Shown here piece by piece: positions 14,709 through 60,903 of a DNA stretch of 64,000 nucleotides; the first letter of the stretch is position 1, and each line of letters starts with the position of its first letter. The position numbers and the translations under genes were made by a program. This DNA comes from Thermoleophilaceae bacterium (GTDB lineage Bacteria > Actinomycetota > Thermoleophilia > Solirubrobacterales > Thermoleophilaceae), in the NCBI GenBank assembly GCA_016929195.1, contig JAFGJG010000020.1:2722-66721 (forward strand). Direction: 5' to 3'. Below the pieces are notes generated by a model. It ran no database searches. It was given only the letters and a program-made list of their open reading frames with translations, and was not told the origin of the DNA.

Positions 14709-15253
14709 CAGGCCATACCTCCTATCGGTTTCCGTGCGCGGATACTCGCACTCTGCGATCTGGTGGCCCTGACAGGATCCGGTAGAAGCCGCACACTAGT
14801 CTCGAGCCTCGGTTGAGGGTCCCAGCGCGTAGGGTGTGTCGAGGCCCGACCCGGAGAGTGCTGCAGGACCGTGGCCGCGAAGACAAAGACGATCACGGCG
14901 AGGGAGCTGCGGGCGCTGCTCGCGCTCCCAGGCGTGACGGCGGGCAGGTTCGTGTCCCTCTCCGTGGGCGAGGCGGTCGTGGACCTGGTCACGCCGCGAG
15001 GTCCCCGGACGATGCGCGTCGTCGATGACGGCGGTCGGCGCAGGCCTGCCGCCAGGCGCTGACCGGGCCTCCGATTCCCCGCCGAGGCGCCTGGTCGTAG
15101 ACGCCGCGCGGAGAGGGAGCTCGGGATCGTCGAACTGGTCGACACGGTGCCGCGGCGCGGCGCATCGGCTGACCGGCTGCCCGATGAGTGTTTGGACGCC
15201 AACTTCTGGGTACTTAGAGACATCTCACCATTCACGCCTCGGGCGGGGGGCCC

Positions 15254-15559
15254 ATGCCGGTCGTCATCAGATACACGACCACCATCGGAGCGGACGCGTA
15301 CGACGAGATCGCCGCTCGCATCAGGTTCCATGACGACGTGCCCGAGGGGCTGATCGTCCATTCCGCGGCGGTCACCGACGCCGGCCAGATGAGGGTCTTC
15401 GACGTGTGGCGGAATGTGGAGGCCTTTGAGCGGTTCCTCGAGACCAGGCTGGGCCCGGCGCTCGCCGACGTCGCGGGCCCGCACCAACAGGAGGCCGACG
15501 CGGTCGAGGTCTTCGAGCTCCACAGCCTCGTCCGGCAAGGCCGGCCGCTCGCCTCCTGA
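15254..15559 (+). CDS. small hypothetical protein (possible dimeric alpha/beta-barrel, ABM-like)
   Basis: 101-aa ORF with non-repetitive composition and a G-rich stretch upstream of the ATG. No diagnostic motif. Confidence 0.5.
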   Translation: MPVVIRYTTTIGADAYDEIAARIRFHDDVPEGLIVHSAAVTDAGQMRVFDVWRNVEAFERFLETRLGPALADVAGPHQQEADAVEVFELHSLVRQGRPLAS

Positions 15560-15582
15560 GGCGCAGGCGGCCGCGCCCTCGC

Positions 15583-16977
15583 TCAGTAGCCGGTGCCCGT
15601 CTTGACCCGCCTGCGGTCGATGGGGTGGAGGCCGCCCTTCTTCTCGAGCGTCTGACAGGCGTCGACGATGTCGTCCGCCAGCGTCGTGACCAGCGAGCGG
15701 CCGAGCGTGAGCTTCACGAGCGCCCGCATGATCTTCACGTGGTCCGCGTTCGGCGGGAGCGTGTAGGCCGGCACCATCCAGCCGCGCTCCGCGGCCAGCT
15801 GCGAGGCGACGTCGAACTCGTCGTAGTCGTGCTCGCCCTCGAGCTGGAAGGCCACCAGCGGGAGCTGCTCCGCGCCCTCGTCCCCGATCAGGCGGAACTC
15901 GCCGATGTCGGTGATTCGCTCGGCCAGCGCCCGGGTGTTCGCCTGCATCGTCTCCATGATGTAGCGGTAGCCGCCGTGGCCGAAGCGGACGAAGTTGTAG
16001 TACTGGGCGAGCACCATCGCCGAGCCCGTCGAGAAGTTCAGCGTGAAGGTCGCGTCCGTCTTGCCCAGGTAGTTCTCGTAGAAGACGAGGTCCTCGGGCA
16101 GGTCGCTCCGCTCCCGGAACACGAGCCAGCCGATCCCCGGGTACACGAGCCCGAACTTGTGGCCGGACACGTTGATCGAGCGCACCTGCTCGAGCCGGAA
16201 GTCCCACTCGGAGTGGGGGTAGAGGAACGGCCAGACGAACCCGCCGCTCGCCGCGTCCACGTGGAGCGGGACGTCCATGCCCTGCTCGTCCTTGAGCCGG
16301 AGCAGCAGGTCGTTGATGCCGACGATGTCGTCGGCGTGGCCCGTGAAGGTGGTGCCGAGCACGGCGGCGACGCCGATCGTGTTCTCGTCGACGTGGGGCT
16401 CCACGTCCTCCGGGCCGATCGTGTACTTGTCGGGCTGGAGCGGGATGATCCGCGGCTCGACGTCGAAGTAGCGGCAGAACTTCTCCCAGACGACGTGCAC
16501 GTCCCCGCCGAACACGAGATTGGGACGGCTCAGGTCCTTGCCGGCCTGCTCTCGGCGCCCGCGCCACTTCCACTTCAGGGACAGCGCCCCGAGCATGATC
16601 GCCTCCGAGGACCCCTGGGTGCGCGCCCCGGTGGTCTCGCCGGGGGCGTTGAAGAGATCGGCGATCATCCGGATGCAGCGCTGCTCGATCTCCGCCGTCT
16701 GCGGGTACTCGGCGTGATCGATGAAGTTGCGGTGGAGGTTCTCCGCGATGATGCGCGCCGCCTCGGGCTCCATCCAGGTGGTCACGAACGTCGCGAGGTT
16801 GCGCATCGGGATCCCGTCGAGCACCAGCTCCTCGCCGATCAGGCGCATGGCGTCCACGGAGCGCATGCCGTGTTCAGGCAGATGGTCGTCGGGGGCCCCC
16901 TCGAGGAGGAACCGGTTCCCGTAGCTCTTGGCGAGGTCGTCGAGCTCTTGGGCCAGATGCTCGTGCGACATGCTCAC
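15583..16977 (-). CDS. gadB: glutamate decarboxylase (PLP-dependent)
   Basis: PLP-lysine motif [17 protein letters not shown] and full-length similarity to the GAD family. The start is either the GTG at 16977 (GTGA overlap with the upstream stop) or the ATG at 16971. The 838-aa track ORF is an artefactual extension. Confidence 0.9.
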
Positions 16978-18632
16978 ACCTCTTTCATGAATTGGTGGAC
17001 GAATGCGATGGCCATGCTGCCCTCGCCGACTGCCGCTGCAACGCGCTTCACCGGGCCGAGCCGCACGTCGCCGCAGGCGAAGATCCCCGGCACGCTCGTC
17101 TCGAGCAGGTACGGGTCGCGCTCGAGCGTCCAGTCGGCGCCCGCGCGCATCTCGGCCCCCGTCAGGACGTAGCCGCGCTCGTCGCGCGCGATCTCGGGCG
17201 GCAGCCACTCGGTCTGCGCGTCCGCCCCGATGAAGATGAACAGCCCGCCCGACTCGACCCGTGTCGCGGTGCCCGACTCGTCGATGTCGATCGCCTCGAG
17301 CGAGAGCTCTCCGTGCACCGCGGTGACCGTGGAGCCGAGGCGCGTGTGGATGTTCGCGCGCGCCGCGAGCTGGTCGATCAGGTAGCGCGACATGCTCTTC
17401 TCGAGGCGGTCCCCGCGCGAGACGATCGTGACGCTGCGGGCGTGCGTCGAGAAGAACAGCGCGGCCTGCCCGGCCGAGTTGCCCGCGCCCACGATGTGGA
17501 CGTCGAGGCCGTGTGTGTTCGGCGCCTCGCTGCGCGACGCCCCGTACGAGACGCCCTTGCCCGCCAGCCGGTCGAAGCCCTCGATCTCGAGCCGCCGCCA
17601 GGAGACGCCGCAGGCCAGGATGATGGTCTTGGCGCGGAGCACGTCCCCGCCGTCGAGGTGCAGCTGGCGCGTGGCGGCGTCGATCCTTGCGATCGAGCGG
17701 GTCACGAGGATCTCGGCGCCCAGCCGTCGCGCCTGGTTGAGGGCGCGGCTGGCGAGCTCGTCGCCGGACACGCCGGAGGGGAAGCCGAGGTAGTTCTCGA
17801 TCCGCGCGGAGGTGCCCGCCTGCCCGCCCGGCGCCTCGCGCTCGACCACGATCGTGCGCAGACCCTCCGACGCGCCGTACACGGCTGCCGCGAGCCCGGC
17901 CGGCCCGGCGCCCACGATGACCGCGTCGTACTCGGCCGCCTCGGCCTCGGTGCCGAGGCCGAGCAGCTCGGCGACGCGCCGGAGCTGCGGCCGGATCACG
18001 GTCTTCCCGTCGACGATCCGGACCGCCGGCAGGTCCGCCTCGCCCGGCAGCGGCCCGTCCCAGCTCAGCTCGGCGTCGGGCGCGGTCGGCTCGAGCCACC
18101 TGTAGCTGATCTGGTTGCGGTCGAGGAAGTGCCTCAGCTCGGCGCAGGCCGGGTCCCAGCGGTTGCCCAGCACGATCGCCCGCGGCGGCGGCGGGTCGGC
18201 CGCGATCCCCTGGAGCCCGCGCGCTCCGCCCATCCGGTGCGCGGCCAGGCGGCCGACCTCCTGCGCGACCTCGGGGACCACCGAGGCGACCGCGTGGTAG
18301 TCGGCCGGGTCGATCCGCATGACCCGCGTGGGCTCCGAGGCACGGAAGCCGACGGGGAACACGGTGCCGAGGGCGATCGGCACCTCGCCGAACACGTCGC
18401 CCGGCATCCGCTCGCCGAGGACGCGCTCGATCCCGTCGACGTGCCGCACCGGCTCGATGCGGCCCTCGAGCACCGCGAAGAGCGCTCGCTCAGCGCCCTC
18501 GTGGGCGGCGTACTCGCCGGGCACGAGCGTCACGTCCGCCGCGACGCGGGACAGCTGTTCGCACTGGGCCAGGTCGAGATCGGCGAAGAGTGTGATCCCG
18601 CCGATCTCCTCGGGGGTCACCACGCGTCGCAA
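16974..18632 (-). CDS. cyclic-nucleotide-binding domain / Grx-like linker / thioredoxin-reductase-like FAD oxidoreductase fusion
   Basis: 552 aa. cNMP domain (FGEVPIALG...FRASE). FAD motif [19 protein letters not shown](P) motif [14 protein letters not shown]-terminal GIFACGDV. The TrxR CATC redox motif is replaced by [10 protein letters not shown]. Confidence 0.9.
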
Positions 18633-18647
18633 CCTAACATTCGCGGC

Positions 18648-19265
18648 ATGGGCCTATACGGCGATCATGTGCTCCCACGTGTCGTGAACGTCGCCTGCGG
18701 CATGAAGAACACCCGGCCGCTGCGGCAGCGGGTGTGCGAGGGACTCGCGGGCGAGGTCGTGGAGATCGGCTTCGGCTCGGGCCTGAACGTGCCGCACTAT
18801 CCCGCCGCCGTGACGCGGATCGCCGCCGTGGAGCCGGCCGATACGGGCTGGAAGCTGGCCCGGAAGCGCCTGGAGGCGGCGACCGTCCCGGTGGAGCGCT
18901 CGGGCCTCGACGGGCAGTCGCTTCCGTTCGCCGACGACAGCTTCGACACCGCGCTGTCCACGTGGACGATGTGCACGATCCCGGACGTGGACCGCGCGCT
19001 GGCCGAGCTGCGCCGGGTGCTGAAGCCCGGCGGCACGCTGCGCTTCGTGGAGCACGGGCTGGCGCCCGACGAGTCGGTGCGCCGCTGGCAGCACCGCCTC
19101 GAGCCGGTGCAGAAGCGCGTCTTCGGGGGCTGCCACCTGACGCGGCGGGTCCCGGACCTGCTGAGAAGCGCCGGCTTCGAGATCGTGGAGCTCGACTCGT
19201 TCTACGAGGAGGGGGCGCCCAAGGTGGTGGGTGCGAACTCCCTCGGCGCGGCGGTGTCGCCCTAG
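18648..19265 (+). CDS. class I SAM-dependent methyltransferase
   Basis: Motif [12 protein letters not shown]. Post-I and motif II region [16 protein letters not shown] at 18648. Confidence 0.85.
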
Positions 19266-43375: not shown

Positions 43376-43609
43376 ATGGCCGAGGAGCGGACAGCTCGCG
43401 GAACGATGATCCCGGCGCGCGGCCGCCGCAGGTTCAGGGCCGAGTCGGTCCTGATGCGGCTGGTCGCGACCGCCGGGATCGTGGCCCTCGGCGTCCTGCT
43501 CGGGGCGATCCTCGTCTCGGCGGACGTCCAGGGCTGGATCGTCGGGCTCGTGGTCGCGCTGATCAGCGTGGTGCTGGCCGGCGTGCTCTGGTCCTCACGT
43601 CAGCTCTGA
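43376..43609 (+). CDS. small two-TM membrane protein
   Basis: 77 aa. The ATG immediately follows the YihY stop. Two hydrophobic helices after an Arg-rich N-terminus. Confidence 0.5.
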   Translation: MAEERTARGTMIPARGRRRFRAESVLMRLVATAGIVALGVLLGAILVSADVQGWIVGLVVALISVVLAGVLWSSRQL

Positions 43610-45306
43610 CCGGAGGCGGCTGACTCGCGGTCGGACGAGAGCAGCGTCTCGTGGACCTGCTTGATGACCGCCGAGCCGTCGCCGACTGCGGCGGCCACGC
43701 GCGCGATCGAGGCCTGGTTCAGGTCGCCGACCGCGAAGACGCCGGGGAGTGAGGTCTCCCACACGCGCGGCTGGCGCTCGAGCGGCCAGCCGTCGGCCGG
43801 CGACAGGTCGACGTCGGTCGGCACGTAGCCGTAGTCGTCGCGGGCGATCGAGTCCGGCAGCCAGTCGCTGTTCGGCCGCGCGCCGATCAGGACGAACAGG
43901 GCGCGGGCGGGGACGGTCTCCGTCTCGCCGGTCTTCCGGTCGCGCAGCGTCAGGGTCTCGAGCCGCGCCTCGCCGCCGCCGTCGATCACCTCGGTGCAGC
44001 GCCGCAGCTCCACGTTCTCGGTCGCCTCGAGCTGGCCGCGCAGGTACTGGGACATGCTGTCCGCGAGCGTCTCCCCTCGCACAAGGATCGTCACCTTGCG
44101 GGCGTAGCGGGAGAGGTGCATCGCGGCCTGGCCCGCCGAGTTGCCGCCGCCGAGCACGAACACGTCGCCGCCGGCCGACGCGGCGGCCTCCGGCCCCGAC
44201 CCCACGTAGTAGACGCCCGACCCGACCAGGTCCTCGAGCGCGGGGATGCCGAGCCGCCGGTACGCGGCGCCGGTGGCGAGCACGACCGTGCGGCCATGGA
44301 CCTCGGCGCCGCCCACGAGCGTGAGCACGTGGCAGTCCGGCTCCGTCCGGAGCGAGGCGACCTCGGACATCAGCAGGAAGCGCGACCCGAACACCCAGGC
44401 CTGCTGATAGGCGCGCTGGGCGAGGTCCGCGCCGCCGACGCCGCGCTGGAAGCCCAGGTAGTTGCGGATCAGCGAGCTCGACCCGGCCTGCCCTCCGATC
44501 GACTCCTTCTCGATGGTCAGCACCGACAGGCCCTCCGACGACGCGTAGACCGATGCGGCGAGCCCCGCCGGGCCGGCGCCGACGACGATCACGTCGAACA
44601 GCTCGTCCGGGTCGCCGAGCTCGGTGTTGACGCCGTAGCCGGCGGCCAGCTCCGCGTTCGTGGGGTCGGCGAGCGAGCGACCGTCGAGGAAGACGACGAC
44701 CGGCCTGCGCTCGCCGGGGTGCCCCGCCTCCTCGAGCAGCTCGCGGCCGCGCTCCGAGTCGGTGGGGTGGTAGCTGTGCGCCATCCCGTTGCGGGCGAGC
44801 AGGCTGCGCAGGTCGTGCACGCGCGCCTGCCACGGCTCGCCGATGACCGCTATCTCGGTCGGGAGGCTCGAGCGCGCGCGGGTCCACTCCAGGAGGAACT
44901 CGGTGACGACCCGGTGGAAGTGCTCGTCCGGGTTCCGCCAGGGCTTCGGGATGTAGTAGTCGATCTCGCCGCGGCCCATGCAGTCGACGATCGCCTTGGT
45001 GGTCTTGCTCTGCCCCCACGCCCCCCACTCGATCAGGAGCGCGCGGCGCGAGTGGGGGTGGATCGCACCGACCCGGGCGAGCAGCTCAGCGCCGTTCAGG
45101 CCGGACGTCCAGAGCGCCGCGAGCACCAGCGCGACCGGCGTCTCGCTCCCGCGCAGCTCGTCGAGATGCGCGAGCGCCGCGCTGCACGACGCCTGGACCA
45201 CGATCTCGTAGTCGCTCGAGTAGCGCCGCCGGAGGTGCTCCTCGACCATCGCGAGCGCCGCCGGATCGTCGTCGACAGCGAGGATCACGGGCTTGCGATC
45301 GGCCAT
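43600..45306 (-). CDS. receiver(REC)-like domain / Grx-like linker / thioredoxin-reductase-like FAD oxidoreductase fusion
   Basis: 568 aa. REC N-terminus ILAVDDDP. FAD motif [20 protein letters not shown](P) motif [20 protein letters not shown]. No CxxC at the TrxR active-site position (GVYYVGSGPE). The expected phospho-acceptor position reads LVLAALW. Confidence 0.9.
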   Translation of the reverse strand: MADRKPVILAVDDDPAALAMVEEHLRRRYSSDYEIVVQASCSAALAHLDELRGSETPVALVLAALWTSGLNGAELLARVGAIHPHSRRALLIEWGAWGQSKTTKAIVDCMGRGEIDYYIPKPWRNPDEHFHRVVTEFLLEWTRARSSLPTEIAVIGEPWQARVHDLRSLLARNGMAHSYHPTDSERGRELLEEAGHPGERRPVVVFLDGRSLADPTNAELAAGYGVNTELGDPDELFDVIVVGAGPAGLAASVYASSEGLSVLTIEKESIGGQAGSSSLIRNYLGFQRGVGGADLAQRAYQQAWVFGSRFLLMSEVASLRTEPDCHVLTLVGGAEVHGRTVVLATGAAYRRLGIPALEDLVGSGVYYVGSGPEAAASAGGDVFVLGGGNSAGQAAMHLSRYARKVTILVRGETLADSMSQYLRGQLEATENVELRRCTEVIDGGGEARLETLTLRDRKTGETETVPARALFVLIGARPNSDWLPDSIARDDYGYVPTDVDLSPADGWPLERQPRVWETSLPGVFAVGDLNQASIARVAAAVGDGSAVIKQVHETLLSSDRESAASGQS

Positions 45307-59535: not shown

Positions 59536-60903
59536 ATGAGCAGCTACGCAGTCACCGACCCGGCCACCGGCGAGACCGTCAAGGAGTACCCGGAGATCAC
59601 CGACGACGAGCTGCGCGCGGCCATCGGTCGCGCGGACGCCGCTCACCGCGAGTGGGCCGCGTCGTCGAGCGTGGCCGATCGCGCGGCGCTGGTCCGGCGC
59701 GTCGGCGAGCTGCACCTCGAGCGGCGTCAGGAGCTCGCCGAGATCATCGTGCGGGAGATGGGCAAGCCGATCGAGCAGGCGCTCGGCGAGGTCGACTTCT
59801 GCGGCGACATCTACGGCTTCTATGCCGACAACGCCGAGGAGCTGATGGCCGACGAGCCCATCGAGCTCGCGGGCGGGGAGGGGTCGGCGGTCGTTCGCCG
59901 GAGCTCCCTGGGCGTGCTGCTCGGGATCATGCCGTGGAACTTCCCGTACTACCAGGTGGCGCGTCTCGCCGGCCCGAACCACGTGATCGGGAACACGATC
60001 GTGCTGAAGCACGCGCCACAGTGCCCCGAGTCCGCCGAGGCGATCCAGAAGCTCTTCGACGACGCCGGCTTCCCGGAGGGCGCGTACGAGAACGTCTACG
60101 CGACGAACGAGCAGATCGAGTGGGTGATCGCCGATCCTCGGATCCGCGGCGTCTCCGTCACGGGCTCGGAGCGCGCGGGGGCCGCGGTCGCCGAGATCGC
60201 GGGCCGGAACCTCAAGAAGGTCGTGCTGGAGATGGGCGGCTCCGACCCGTTCATCGTGCTCGGCACGGACGACCTGGACAAGGTGGTCGAGGACGCCGTG
60301 GCCGCCCGTCTCGACAACACGGGCCAGTCGTGCAACGCGGCCAAGCGCTTCATCGTGGTCGACGACCTGTACGAGCCCTTCCTCGAGAAGTTCAGTGCCG
60401 CGATGACCGCGACGAAGCCGGGTGACCCGACTTCGGAGGACACCGAGATCGGGCCGCTCTCGTCCAAGACCGCGGCCGACCGCCTCGAGGACCAGGTCAG
60501 GCGGGCGATCGACCAGGGGGCGAAGGTCGCCGTCGGCGGCAAGCGCGACGGCAACTTCTTCGAGCCGACCGTCCTGACCGACATCGAGCCCGACAACGAC
60601 GCCTATCGCGAGGAGCTGTTCGGCCCGGTCGCGCAGGTGTACCGCGTCTCGTCCGAGGAGGAGGCGGTGAAGCTGGCCAACGACACGCCGTTCGGCCTCG
60701 GCTCCTACGTGATGACGACGGACTCCGAGCAGGGGGAGCGCGTGGCGGACCAGATCGACGCCGGGATGGTCTACGTGAACATCGTCGGCGCCGACTCCGC
60801 GGAGCTTCCGTTCGGCGGCACGAAGCGATCCGGGTTCGGCCGCGAGCTGGGCAGGCTCGGCGCCGACGAGTTCGTGAACAAGAAGCTCATCCGCATCGGC
60901 TGA
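59536..60903 (+). CDS. gabD: NAD(P)-dependent succinate-semialdehyde dehydrogenase (aldehyde dehydrogenase family)
   Basis: 455 aa. MPWNFPYYQV, catalytic LEMGGSDP, and QSCNAAKRF (Cys nucleophile). Confidence 0.85.
   Translation: MSSYAVTDPATGETVKEYPEITDDELRAAIGRADAAHREWAASSSVADRAALVRRVGELHLERRQELAEIIVREMGKPIEQALGEVDFCGDIYGFYADNAEELMADEPIELAGGEGSAVVRRSSLGVLLGIMPWNFPYYQVARLAGPNHVIGNTIVLKHAPQCPESAEAIQKLFDDAGFPEGAYENVYATNEQIEWVIADPRIRGVSVTGSERAGAAVAEIAGRNLKKVVLEMGGSDPFIVLGTDDLDKVVEDAVAARLDNTGQSCNAAKRFIVVDDLYEPFLEKFSAAMTATKPGDPTSEDTEIGPLSSKTAADRLEDQVRRAIDQGAKVAVGGKRDGNFFEPTVLTDIEPDNDAYREELFGPVAQVYRVSSEEEAVKLANDTPFGLGSYVMTTDSEQGERVADQIDAGMVYVNIVGADSAELPFGGTKRSGFGRELGRLGADEFVNKKLIRIG

Follow-up and report, generated by a model that had tools for sequence, protein, structure and literature searches.

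The window analysed here is a 64,000-nucleotide stretch of a Thermoleophilaceae genome (assembly GCA_016929195.1, contig JAFGJG010000020.1, positions 2,722 to 66,721). We studied a minus-strand gene in this window that encodes a 552-aa flavoprotein, referred to below as the target. It consists of a cyclic-nucleotide-binding (CNB)-like domain, a glutaredoxin (Grx)-like linker and a thioredoxin reductase (TrxR)-like body. A gene for pyridoxal-phosphate (PLP)-dependent glutamate decarboxylase (GAD) follows it immediately. The features of the locus, with the evidence used to assign them, are as follows.

16974..18632, minus strand: flavoprotein gene, 552 aa (list of open reading frames (ORFs), Pfam, NCBIfam, exact match to a public protein)
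18228..18632, minus strand: sensor domain of CNB fold (cNMP_binding-like), residues ~1-135 (Pfam PF00027, PDB alignments, hhalign)
17958..18185, minus strand: linker of glutaredoxin/mycoredoxin fold, residues 150-225 (secondary structure of the AlphaFold2 (AF2) model, profile match to 2lqo)
16977..17936, minus strand: TrxR-like FAD/NAD(P)H module, residues 233-552 (Pyr_redox_2, matches to TrxRs in PDB, Foldseek)
17523..17552, minus strand: segment replacing the redox disulfide ..SxCATCD.. of TrxB (alignments to TrxR and to the family)
16969..16985, minus strand: gene junction AAAGAGGTGTGAGCATG (GAGG Shine-Dalgarno sequence (SD), TGA of the flavoprotein gene, 2 nt, ATG of GAD)
15583..16971, minus strand: PLP-dependent GAD, 462 aa (TIGR01788, Pyridoxal_deC)

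The target gene starts with TTG at 18632 and ends with TGA at 16976-16974; the public gene call takes GTG at 18623 as the start, which gives 549 aa. The three-part architecture proposed in the preliminary description of this locus was borne out by the Pfam domains, by an AF2 model built on a 54-sequence family alignment (pLDDT 89.4, pTM 0.78) and by collinearity within the family. Over residues ~3-551 the target is collinear, at 43-88% identity, with at least 38 loci from several phyla.

The TrxR-like body (Pyr_redox_2 at residues 235-538, E 1.7e-37; matches to TrxRs in PDB at 1e-39) contains both dinucleotide folds in complete form. The FAD motif GAGPAG at 241-246 and the NAD(P)H motif GAGNSA at 382-387 are invariant in the family. 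At the position of HRRxxxR in TrxB, the motif for the 2'-phosphate of NADPH, the target reads SRGDRLEK; R406 does not vary in the family, and the second Arg has given way to G407. The NCBIfam model of TrxB (TRX_reduct, TIGR01292) gives 211.5 bits, below its cut-off of 343.45, and the score with the AhpF model is also far under the cut-off. In the HMMER alignment with TrxR 4zn0 the two TrxR cysteines correspond to G364 and S368, with a one-residue insertion, and the CATC position reads GASRS. Thus the body is a complete TrxR fold that has no CATC disulfide, exactly as had been claimed.

The target contains no CxxC at all, its sole cysteines being C24, C163, C341 and C520. Nor was a CxxC present at the TrxB position in any of the 84 family members examined, which come from many phyla (80 loci of species-representative genomes and the source genome's own paralogues, with this region aligned). 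The motif that replaces it in these proteins is G-x-G-[VI]-x-Y-G-A-[AS]-x-[ST]-E-A, and the target conforms to it. According to the 54-sequence alignment, Y363 and G364 are invariant, E369 is nearly invariant, and E369 and A370 are conserved in at least 90% of sequences; E369 stands where TrxB has the Asp after CATC. We searched the same 54 members for a relocated CxxC or a conserved Cys column. There is no invariant Cys column, and 53 of the 54 proteins have no CxxC anywhere; hence a relocated CxxC was rejected, both for the target and as a conserved feature of the family. The loss of CxxC is evidently a family-wide trait, not a peculiarity of the target gene, and the novelty that the preliminary description implied for it is not supported. 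Canonical TrxB, with GVSYCATCDAAF and HRRNDFRA, is encoded elsewhere in the source genome.

A Foldseek search of the target model against PDB ranked AhpF first overall. TrxRs in the flavin-reducing (FR) state (5mh4 from L. lactis, with TMt 0.92, and 3cty) superpose on the TrxR module of the model with TMt 0.90-0.92 and rmsd ~2 A, whereas for the flavin-oxidising (FO) structure of the same L. lactis enzyme (5mjk) TMt is only ~0.62. Since no disulfide remains to be reduced, it is plausible that the modelled protein rests in the FR conformation.

The DSSP assignment for the AF2 model shows that residues 152-223 of the linker follow the order beta-alpha-beta-alpha-beta-beta-alpha, which is the thioredoxin/glutaredoxin topology, and the linker profile matches the M. 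tuberculosis mycoredoxin Rv3198A (2lqo) with E 8e-9. WCGYC of the mycoredoxin pairs with WDPAC of the target: the nucleophilic Cys is changed to Asp and the second Cys (C163) is retained. Neither CxxC nor CxxS with an N-terminal nucleophilic Cys is present in the target linker, and its description as a Grx-like linker lacking CxxC is therefore correct. The C163 column contains Cys in 70% of the 54 aligned members. It is Cys in most CNB-type members and usually Ser in members of a sister subfamily that has a receiver (REC) domain at the N-terminus; the latter mostly have WSxxS at the linker motif.

At the N-terminus of the target, Pfam cNMP_binding (PF00027) matches residues 35-114 with 44.5 bits (cut-off 27.5), and hhalign pairs this region with E. 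coli CRP with a probability of 96.6%. In the profile alignment G82/E83 correspond to CRP G71/E72, so that the phosphate-binding cassette retains its Gly-Glu; F92/P93 stand opposite R82/S83, the cyclic-phosphate ligands of CRP; and R97/A98, which lie in the FRAS motif, correspond to CRP R87/A88. Alignments to the PDB structures 2pqq, 4ev0 and PKA RI-beta give the same cassette pairing. The Arg and Ser/Thr of the phosphate-binding cassette (R82/S83 in CRP, RxA in PKA) were not found in the target, and the cassette FGEVPxxLGTxFPxxxRA is common to the other CNB-type family members examined. Because F92/P93 replace R82/S83 in these members as well as in the target, canonical binding of cAMP or cGMP is unlikely, and neither nucleotide, if bound in that mode, is likely to be the sensor's ligand. 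The sensing of cyclic nucleotides (cNMPs) that the preliminary description proposed is thus not supported, its FRAS motif matching CRP R87/A88 rather than the phosphate ligands. The target shares with the CNB domains of the CRP and PKA type the beta-barrel fold and the Gly-Glu of the cassette, but their Arg-Ser/Thr clamp for the cyclic phosphate is Phe-Pro here. CooA, CprK and NtcA, sensors of the CRP/FNR superfamily that respond to ligands other than cNMPs, also have no Arg-Ser/Thr clamp.

The target adds a further protein to a family that is large and already catalogued, yet little understood in its mechanism. At least 8000 proteins match it in a word-based search; the best 120 of these matches are all at least 79% identical to it, and the best matches are annotated as 'thioredoxin reductase (NADPH)' or 'FAD-dependent oxidoreductase'. 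We confirmed at least 588 family loci in species-representative genomes. The groups in which the family occurs include Thermoleophilia, Burkholderiales, Myxococcota, Acidobacteriota, Chloroflexota, Cyanobacteria, Bacteroidota and others. The NCBI name of the target's family is 'cyclic nucleotide-binding domain-containing thioredoxin-disulfide reductase', and no literature was found under this product name or joining all three terms together. In two genomes of the same genus the orthologues of the target (G012:C6:9733-11368 and G020:C3:401106-402717) are split into two overlapping frames, and one of them has a TGA inside it. They are pseudogenes, or else the few-contig assemblies contain indel errors at these genes.

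The closest published counterpart is ATII-TrxR, a Crp-TrxB protein from a metagenome of the Atlantis II brine pool that, like the target, has a 1659-bp gene, 552 aa, an N-terminal Crp/cNMP domain and a TrxB-like body (PMC6544261). The purified protein was reported to contain FAD, to work with either NADPH or NADH, and to reduce DTNB (5,5'-dithiobis-(2-nitrobenzoic acid)) and a thioredoxin, the latter with kcat 28 s-1 in an insulin-coupled assay (PMC6544261). In that study it was treated as a 'high-Mr TrxR', cysteines 206/223 and 376/467 were proposed to be active, the missing CxxC was passed over, and cyclic nucleotides were not assayed; no GAD context is involved (PMC6544261). ATII-TrxR is 87% identical to WP_011516654 from Cupriavidus metallidurans (PMC6544261). 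Paraburkholderia orthologues of the target (L016-L018, 62% identity) place the same subfamily in Burkholderiaceae, the family that includes Cupriavidus, and we regard ATII-TrxR as a distant orthologue of the target with an identity of ~60%, estimated from the Paraburkholderia loci and not from the ATII sequence. Its assignment as a TrxR needs re-examination.

REC-type members proved informative about the sensor. The source genome encodes two REC-type paralogues, which are 49% (locus L002) and 42% (43600..45306 of the window) identical to the target over its residues ~145-550. The L002 gene (L002:1087-4127, contig C55; 549 aa, GVYYGAALAEAKSC) has the REC / Grx-like / TrxR-like structure and overlaps by 4 nt the start of a gene for a histidine kinase whose N-terminus is CNB-like. 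The same gene lies directly downstream, on the same strand, in 41 of the 45 REC-type loci across many phyla, and in all five loci tested its product is a histidine kinase that begins with a cNMP_binding domain. These kinases have phosphate-binding cassettes similar to that of the target, e.g. FTGEVPLLTETPFVASARS and FSGEVPLLSGTPYVASARA; the canonical R-S-A cassette occurs in only one of ~40 kinases. The other paralogue is located in the window.

43600..45306, minus strand: REC-type paralogue, 568 aa, with a degenerate REC domain, Grx-like linker and TrxR-like body (42% identical to the target)

In this protein the motif has diverged to GVYYVGSGPEAAAS, again with no CxxC. Pfam detects the REC domain weakly (E 0.0011, short of the cut-off), and no kinase gene is obvious next to it in the ORF list; it may be an orphan or degenerate copy.

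The REC type has been catalogued as the 'TrxB' class of response regulators, exemplified by SCO7298 with the kinase SCO7297 (PMC9739842, PMC9953108). Expression of SCO7298 ('trxB3') reportedly rises upon acid shock and in response to sulfane sulfur (PMC2631018, PMC9952706); by its published description it is a putative member of the family. Regulators of this class share with the target the Grx-like linker and the CxxC-less TrxR-like output. The differences concern the input, which is a phosphorylatable REC domain in the former and a fused CNB-like domain in the latter, and the gene context, a conserved two-gene operon with the histidine kinase in one case and no conserved neighbour in the other. 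The atypical CNB-like domain that is fused in the target recurs in the partner kinase. Because the sensor and the flavoprotein are linked in two ways, by fusion or by a kinase-to-receiver relay (the Rosetta-stone argument), we conclude from sequence comparison that a CNB-like sensor acting on a TrxR-like flavoprotein is a predicted conserved signalling unit, and that this unit needs no GAD.

The GAD gene lies 2 nt downstream of the target gene. The junction reads AAA GAG GTG TGA gc ATG TCG, with the ATG of GAD at 16971. The alternative start GTG at 16977 gives the GTGA overlap with the stop codon of the flavoprotein gene that the preliminary description noted, but ATG 16971 is the better start, because GAGG (16982-16979) lies 7 nt ahead of it and because the GAD orthologue in genome G007 begins at the equivalent ATG and is likewise 462 aa long. 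GAD is full-length (571.4 bits with TIGR01788, NCBIfam cut-off 380.4) and has the PLP-lysine motif SGHK at residue 269. The tight physical coupling of the two genes is real, and they are probably co-transcribed in the source genome.

This pairing is not conserved in the other genomes checked. GAD was found within 6 kb of the family gene at none of 80 species-representative loci. Among 40 relatives, eight genomes of the same genus hold both GAD and an orthologue of the target (76-83% identity), and the two are adjacent in none of them, being located on separate contigs or 100-290 kb apart. Finally, not one of 68 metagenomic GAD loci (72-89% identical, each with at least 300 nt of upstream sequence) has a TrxR-like gene within 3 kb. 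When the ORFs lying up to 6 kb to either side in 38 CNB-type loci were clustered all against all, no conserved neighbour of the CNB-type gene emerged either, the top neighbour family being common to four loci; since the gene has no conserved neighbours, operon-based inference of its function was dropped. GAD is likewise a lone gene in variable contexts, with no conserved neighbour across 104 loci and the best non-overlapping cluster present in just 14.

The origin of the junction can be read from orthologous loci. The 88% orthologue of the target (L085) keeps the upstream methyltransferase gene and the next gene, and its synteny with the source genome stops precisely where the flavoprotein gene ends; the 83% orthologue (L086) is followed by convergent, unrelated genes. 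GAD orthologues with unrelated upstream DNA (L090, L141, L146, L093, L184) carry aaGGAGGTaTGAcc ATG, and the counterpart at the junction in the source genome is AAAGAGGTGTGAGC ATG, with the same order SD-TGA-nn-ATG; the leader of the orthologues was also recorded as GGAGGTnTGAnnATG. The native GAD leader, aaGGAGGTnTGAnc-ATG, is homologous to the source-genome junction. As orthologues with no flavoprotein gene upstream already carry the same SD-TGA-nn-ATG, the SD and the stop codon at the junction (GGAGGT-n-TGA-nn-ATG) are evidently GAD's own native leader, not evolved coupling. In the source genome the flavoprotein coding sequence replaces everything upstream of the GAD SD. The C-terminal tail of the flavoprotein is short (FMKEV-stop in the target, FLKEP-stop in L085), and its K-E codons (AAG GAG in L085) look like an SD; from these sequences, a microhomology-mediated join of the flavoprotein gene to GAD is plausible. 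Four of the GAD orthologues (L090, L141, L146, L184) share a conserved leader ~45 nt ahead of the GAD ATG, ggcgggccgccc..tcgtcccc-aaGGAGGTnTGAnc-ATG. It may serve as a 5' regulatory element, or else represent the end of a small upstream ORF that is itself conserved.

One looser association was found in G007 (L140, G007:C67, 4232-6625), where a different paralogue of the family ends ~740 nt upstream of the GAD orthologue (86%). The C-terminal 88 aa of this paralogue are present at the contig end, with 64% identity; an ORF for a 255-aa multi-pass membrane protein lies on the opposite strand between it and GAD. We considered the fragment as an orthologue of the target and rejected it, given that its identity to all subfamily members is 64-70% and it has no close partner. 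As it is not the target's orthologue, the G007 case shows no ancestral synteny. It is the only other family member near GAD, that is, one of ~84 GAD loci with the discovery case left out. By a rough estimate, which assumes 3-5 family copies per genome of ~3500 genes, this is within chance expectation. The tight flavoprotein-GAD junction, found only in the source genome and formed by the GAD leader, is therefore no evidence of a functional link, and the proposed connection with production of gamma-aminobutyric acid (GABA) is not supported.

We also considered whether the wider locus provides a GABA-shunt context, and rejected this. The aldehyde dehydrogenase gene at 59536..60903 (plus strand), described earlier as succinate-semialdehyde dehydrogenase (SSADH), does have SSADH models as its best NCBIfam matches (491 bits against a cut-off of 730), but it lies 42 kb away and scores under every curated SSADH cut-off. 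A GABA aminotransferase gene (gabT) scoring over the cut-off is absent not just from the window, as previously noted, but from the entire 3.46-Mb genome.

Comparison with other flavoenzymes of this fold helps to place the target. TrxB and AhpF share with it the two-Rossmann FAD/NAD(P)H fold with GxGxxG and GxGxxA motifs and an acidic residue at the same position (E369 of the target, Asp of TrxB), and AhpF further resembles it in having an N-terminal thioredoxin-fold domain in addition to the TrxR-like core. Unlike both, the target has no CxxC in either the NADPH or the thioredoxin-fold domain and contains an extra sensor domain; it also has SRG for the HRR of TrxB, and scores under the curated cut-offs for both TrxB and AhpF. 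Loss of CxxC from the TrxR scaffold is known in the ferredoxin/flavodoxin-NADP+ reductases of the YumC type and in the bacillithiol-disulfide reductase YpdA, which are still working NAD(P)H flavoenzymes. These proteins have neither a sensor nor a Grx-like domain. They are far weaker matches to the target than true TrxRs (PDB E ~1e-13 for the ferredoxin/flavodoxin-NADP+ reductases against 1e-39; 54 bits for YpdA), and they lost CxxC independently of the target's family.

Taken together, these results make it probable that the target is a signalling flavoprotein of a large family, a sensor-gated NAD(P)H flavin oxidoreductase, and that GAD became its neighbour by a genome-specific rearrangement. 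The input is an atypical CNB-like domain in the target and a REC receiver in the sister subfamily; the linker is a glutaredoxin/mycoredoxin fold that has lost its nucleophilic cysteine; and the output is an FAD and NAD(P)H module derived from TrxR/AhpF, with YYGAAx[ST]EA instead of the CxxC disulfide in every member examined. Such a protein would function as a ligand-gated, NAD(P)H-dependent flavin oxidoreductase that reduces its acceptor without a TrxB-type dithiol, perhaps with the FR conformation held permanently. A normal GAD gene would have been brought downstream by the rearrangement, the junction re-using GAD's SD-TGA-nn-ATG leader. Nothing indicates an evolved functional partnership of the two proteins. 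Several points weigh against this explanation. The acceptor, the ligand and even the turnover of the target are predictions. The sole published study of a homologue reports reduction of thioredoxin and DTNB, and if this is correct, the protein may have some dithiol-type activity (PMC6544261). SCO7298, a putative member of the family, was reported to be induced by acid shock, which is GAD's own stress (PMC2631018). Besides, the G007 case leaves some room for a weak non-random association with GAD.

The reported activity of ATII-TrxR, with its kcat and DTNB reduction (PMC6544261), argues for a genuine disulfide reductase of thioredoxin (or of mycoredoxin or mycothiol) that would act via non-canonical cysteines or via C163 of the linker; C163 occupies the site of the resolving Cys in a mycoredoxin-like fold, and most CNB-type members retain it. 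However, the family has no invariant cysteine and no conserved pair, the REC-type members have Ser at the C163 position, and the cysteines proposed for ATII-TrxR have no counterparts among the four of the target. The assays at A340 and A412 register diaphorase or oxidase activity as well, and the missing CxxC was never addressed (PMC6544261). With a canonical TrxB in the genome and a TRX_reduct score well under the cut-off, we consider such an enzyme quite unlikely. The loss of nucleophilic cysteines from both ancestral redox centres, the Grx-like and the TrxR CxxC, could instead mean that the target is a pseudoenzyme, that is, an FAD/NAD(P)H-binding sensor or scaffold that acts by conformational change or protein contacts with no turnover; its setting in signalling architectures, with REC and a histidine kinase or with a CNB-like domain, is consistent with this. 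We regard it as unlikely, since in REC-type members the TrxR-like module holds the output position of a response regulator, usually that of an effector, the very high conservation seen at the NAD(P)H and FAD sites and in YYGAAxxEA fits retained chemistry, and the homologue ATII-TrxR oxidises NAD(P)H (PMC6544261).

The two remaining explanations concern the junction. A cNMP/redox sensor coupled to GAD by co-translation, controlling GABA production or acid resistance, would account for the 2-nt gap (or 4-nt overlap) with an SD inside the upstream gene, an arrangement that makes coupled translation and co-transcription likely in this genome. The G007 paralogue and the acid-shock induction of SCO7298 could be cited in its favour as well. 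Against it stand the missing adjacency at the 80 + 8 + 68 comparison loci, the agreement of the single loose G007 case with the rough chance estimate, the pre-existing GAD leader at the junction, the absence of the canonical cNMP phosphate ligands, and the fact that neither gene generally has conserved neighbours; this explanation is very unlikely. Alternatively, the junction could be an assembly chimera, as the source is a metagenome-assembled draft of 193 contigs, synteny with the closest orthologue stops exactly at the junction, and the native sequences share AAGGAG-type microhomology (K-E codons and the GAD SD). But the junction lies deep within a long contig, of which the window alone covers 64 kb, neither ORF is damaged and the coding context of both is good, and microhomology is used by real rearrangements also. 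We consider a chimera extremely improbable.

Upstream, the target gene faces a divergent gene.

18648..19265, plus strand: class I S-adenosylmethionine (SAM)-dependent methyltransferase, divergent from the flavoprotein gene

The synteny on this side is present in the 88% orthologue L085 and absent in the 83% orthologue L086. The starts of the two genes are ~15-25 nt apart (18623..18650), and this arrangement is kept in L085; it implies either overlapping divergent promoters or leaderless mRNAs. A scan of 15200..19000 found no sigma-70-like promoter, such a scan being uninformative for an actinobacterium with 70% GC, and one terminator-like hairpin, which falls within coding sequence and is at chance level.

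It is possible, though we would not count on it, that a CNB-like sensor of ligands other than cAMP and cGMP controls a cysteine-less flavoenzyme, either by fusion or through a phosphorelay from a CNB-kinase to REC, in a widespread and unrecognised redox-output pathway with a new, non-dithiol flavin chemistry. Such a pathway might act under acid or oxidative stress; in that event the co-transcription with GAD in this genome and the acid-shock induction of SCO7298 would be more than coincidence.

The locus itself carries little weight, as its coupling to GAD was seen only in the source genome and the flavoprotein gene is one of thousands. What matters is the family, which is very large, is spread over many soil phyla and holds the output position in a two-component system that is conserved. 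It is routinely labelled 'thioredoxin reductase' in databases although every member examined has no catalytic disulfide. To identify its ligand and electron acceptor would put right a widespread mis-annotation and might reveal a new kind of signal-controlled redox enzyme.

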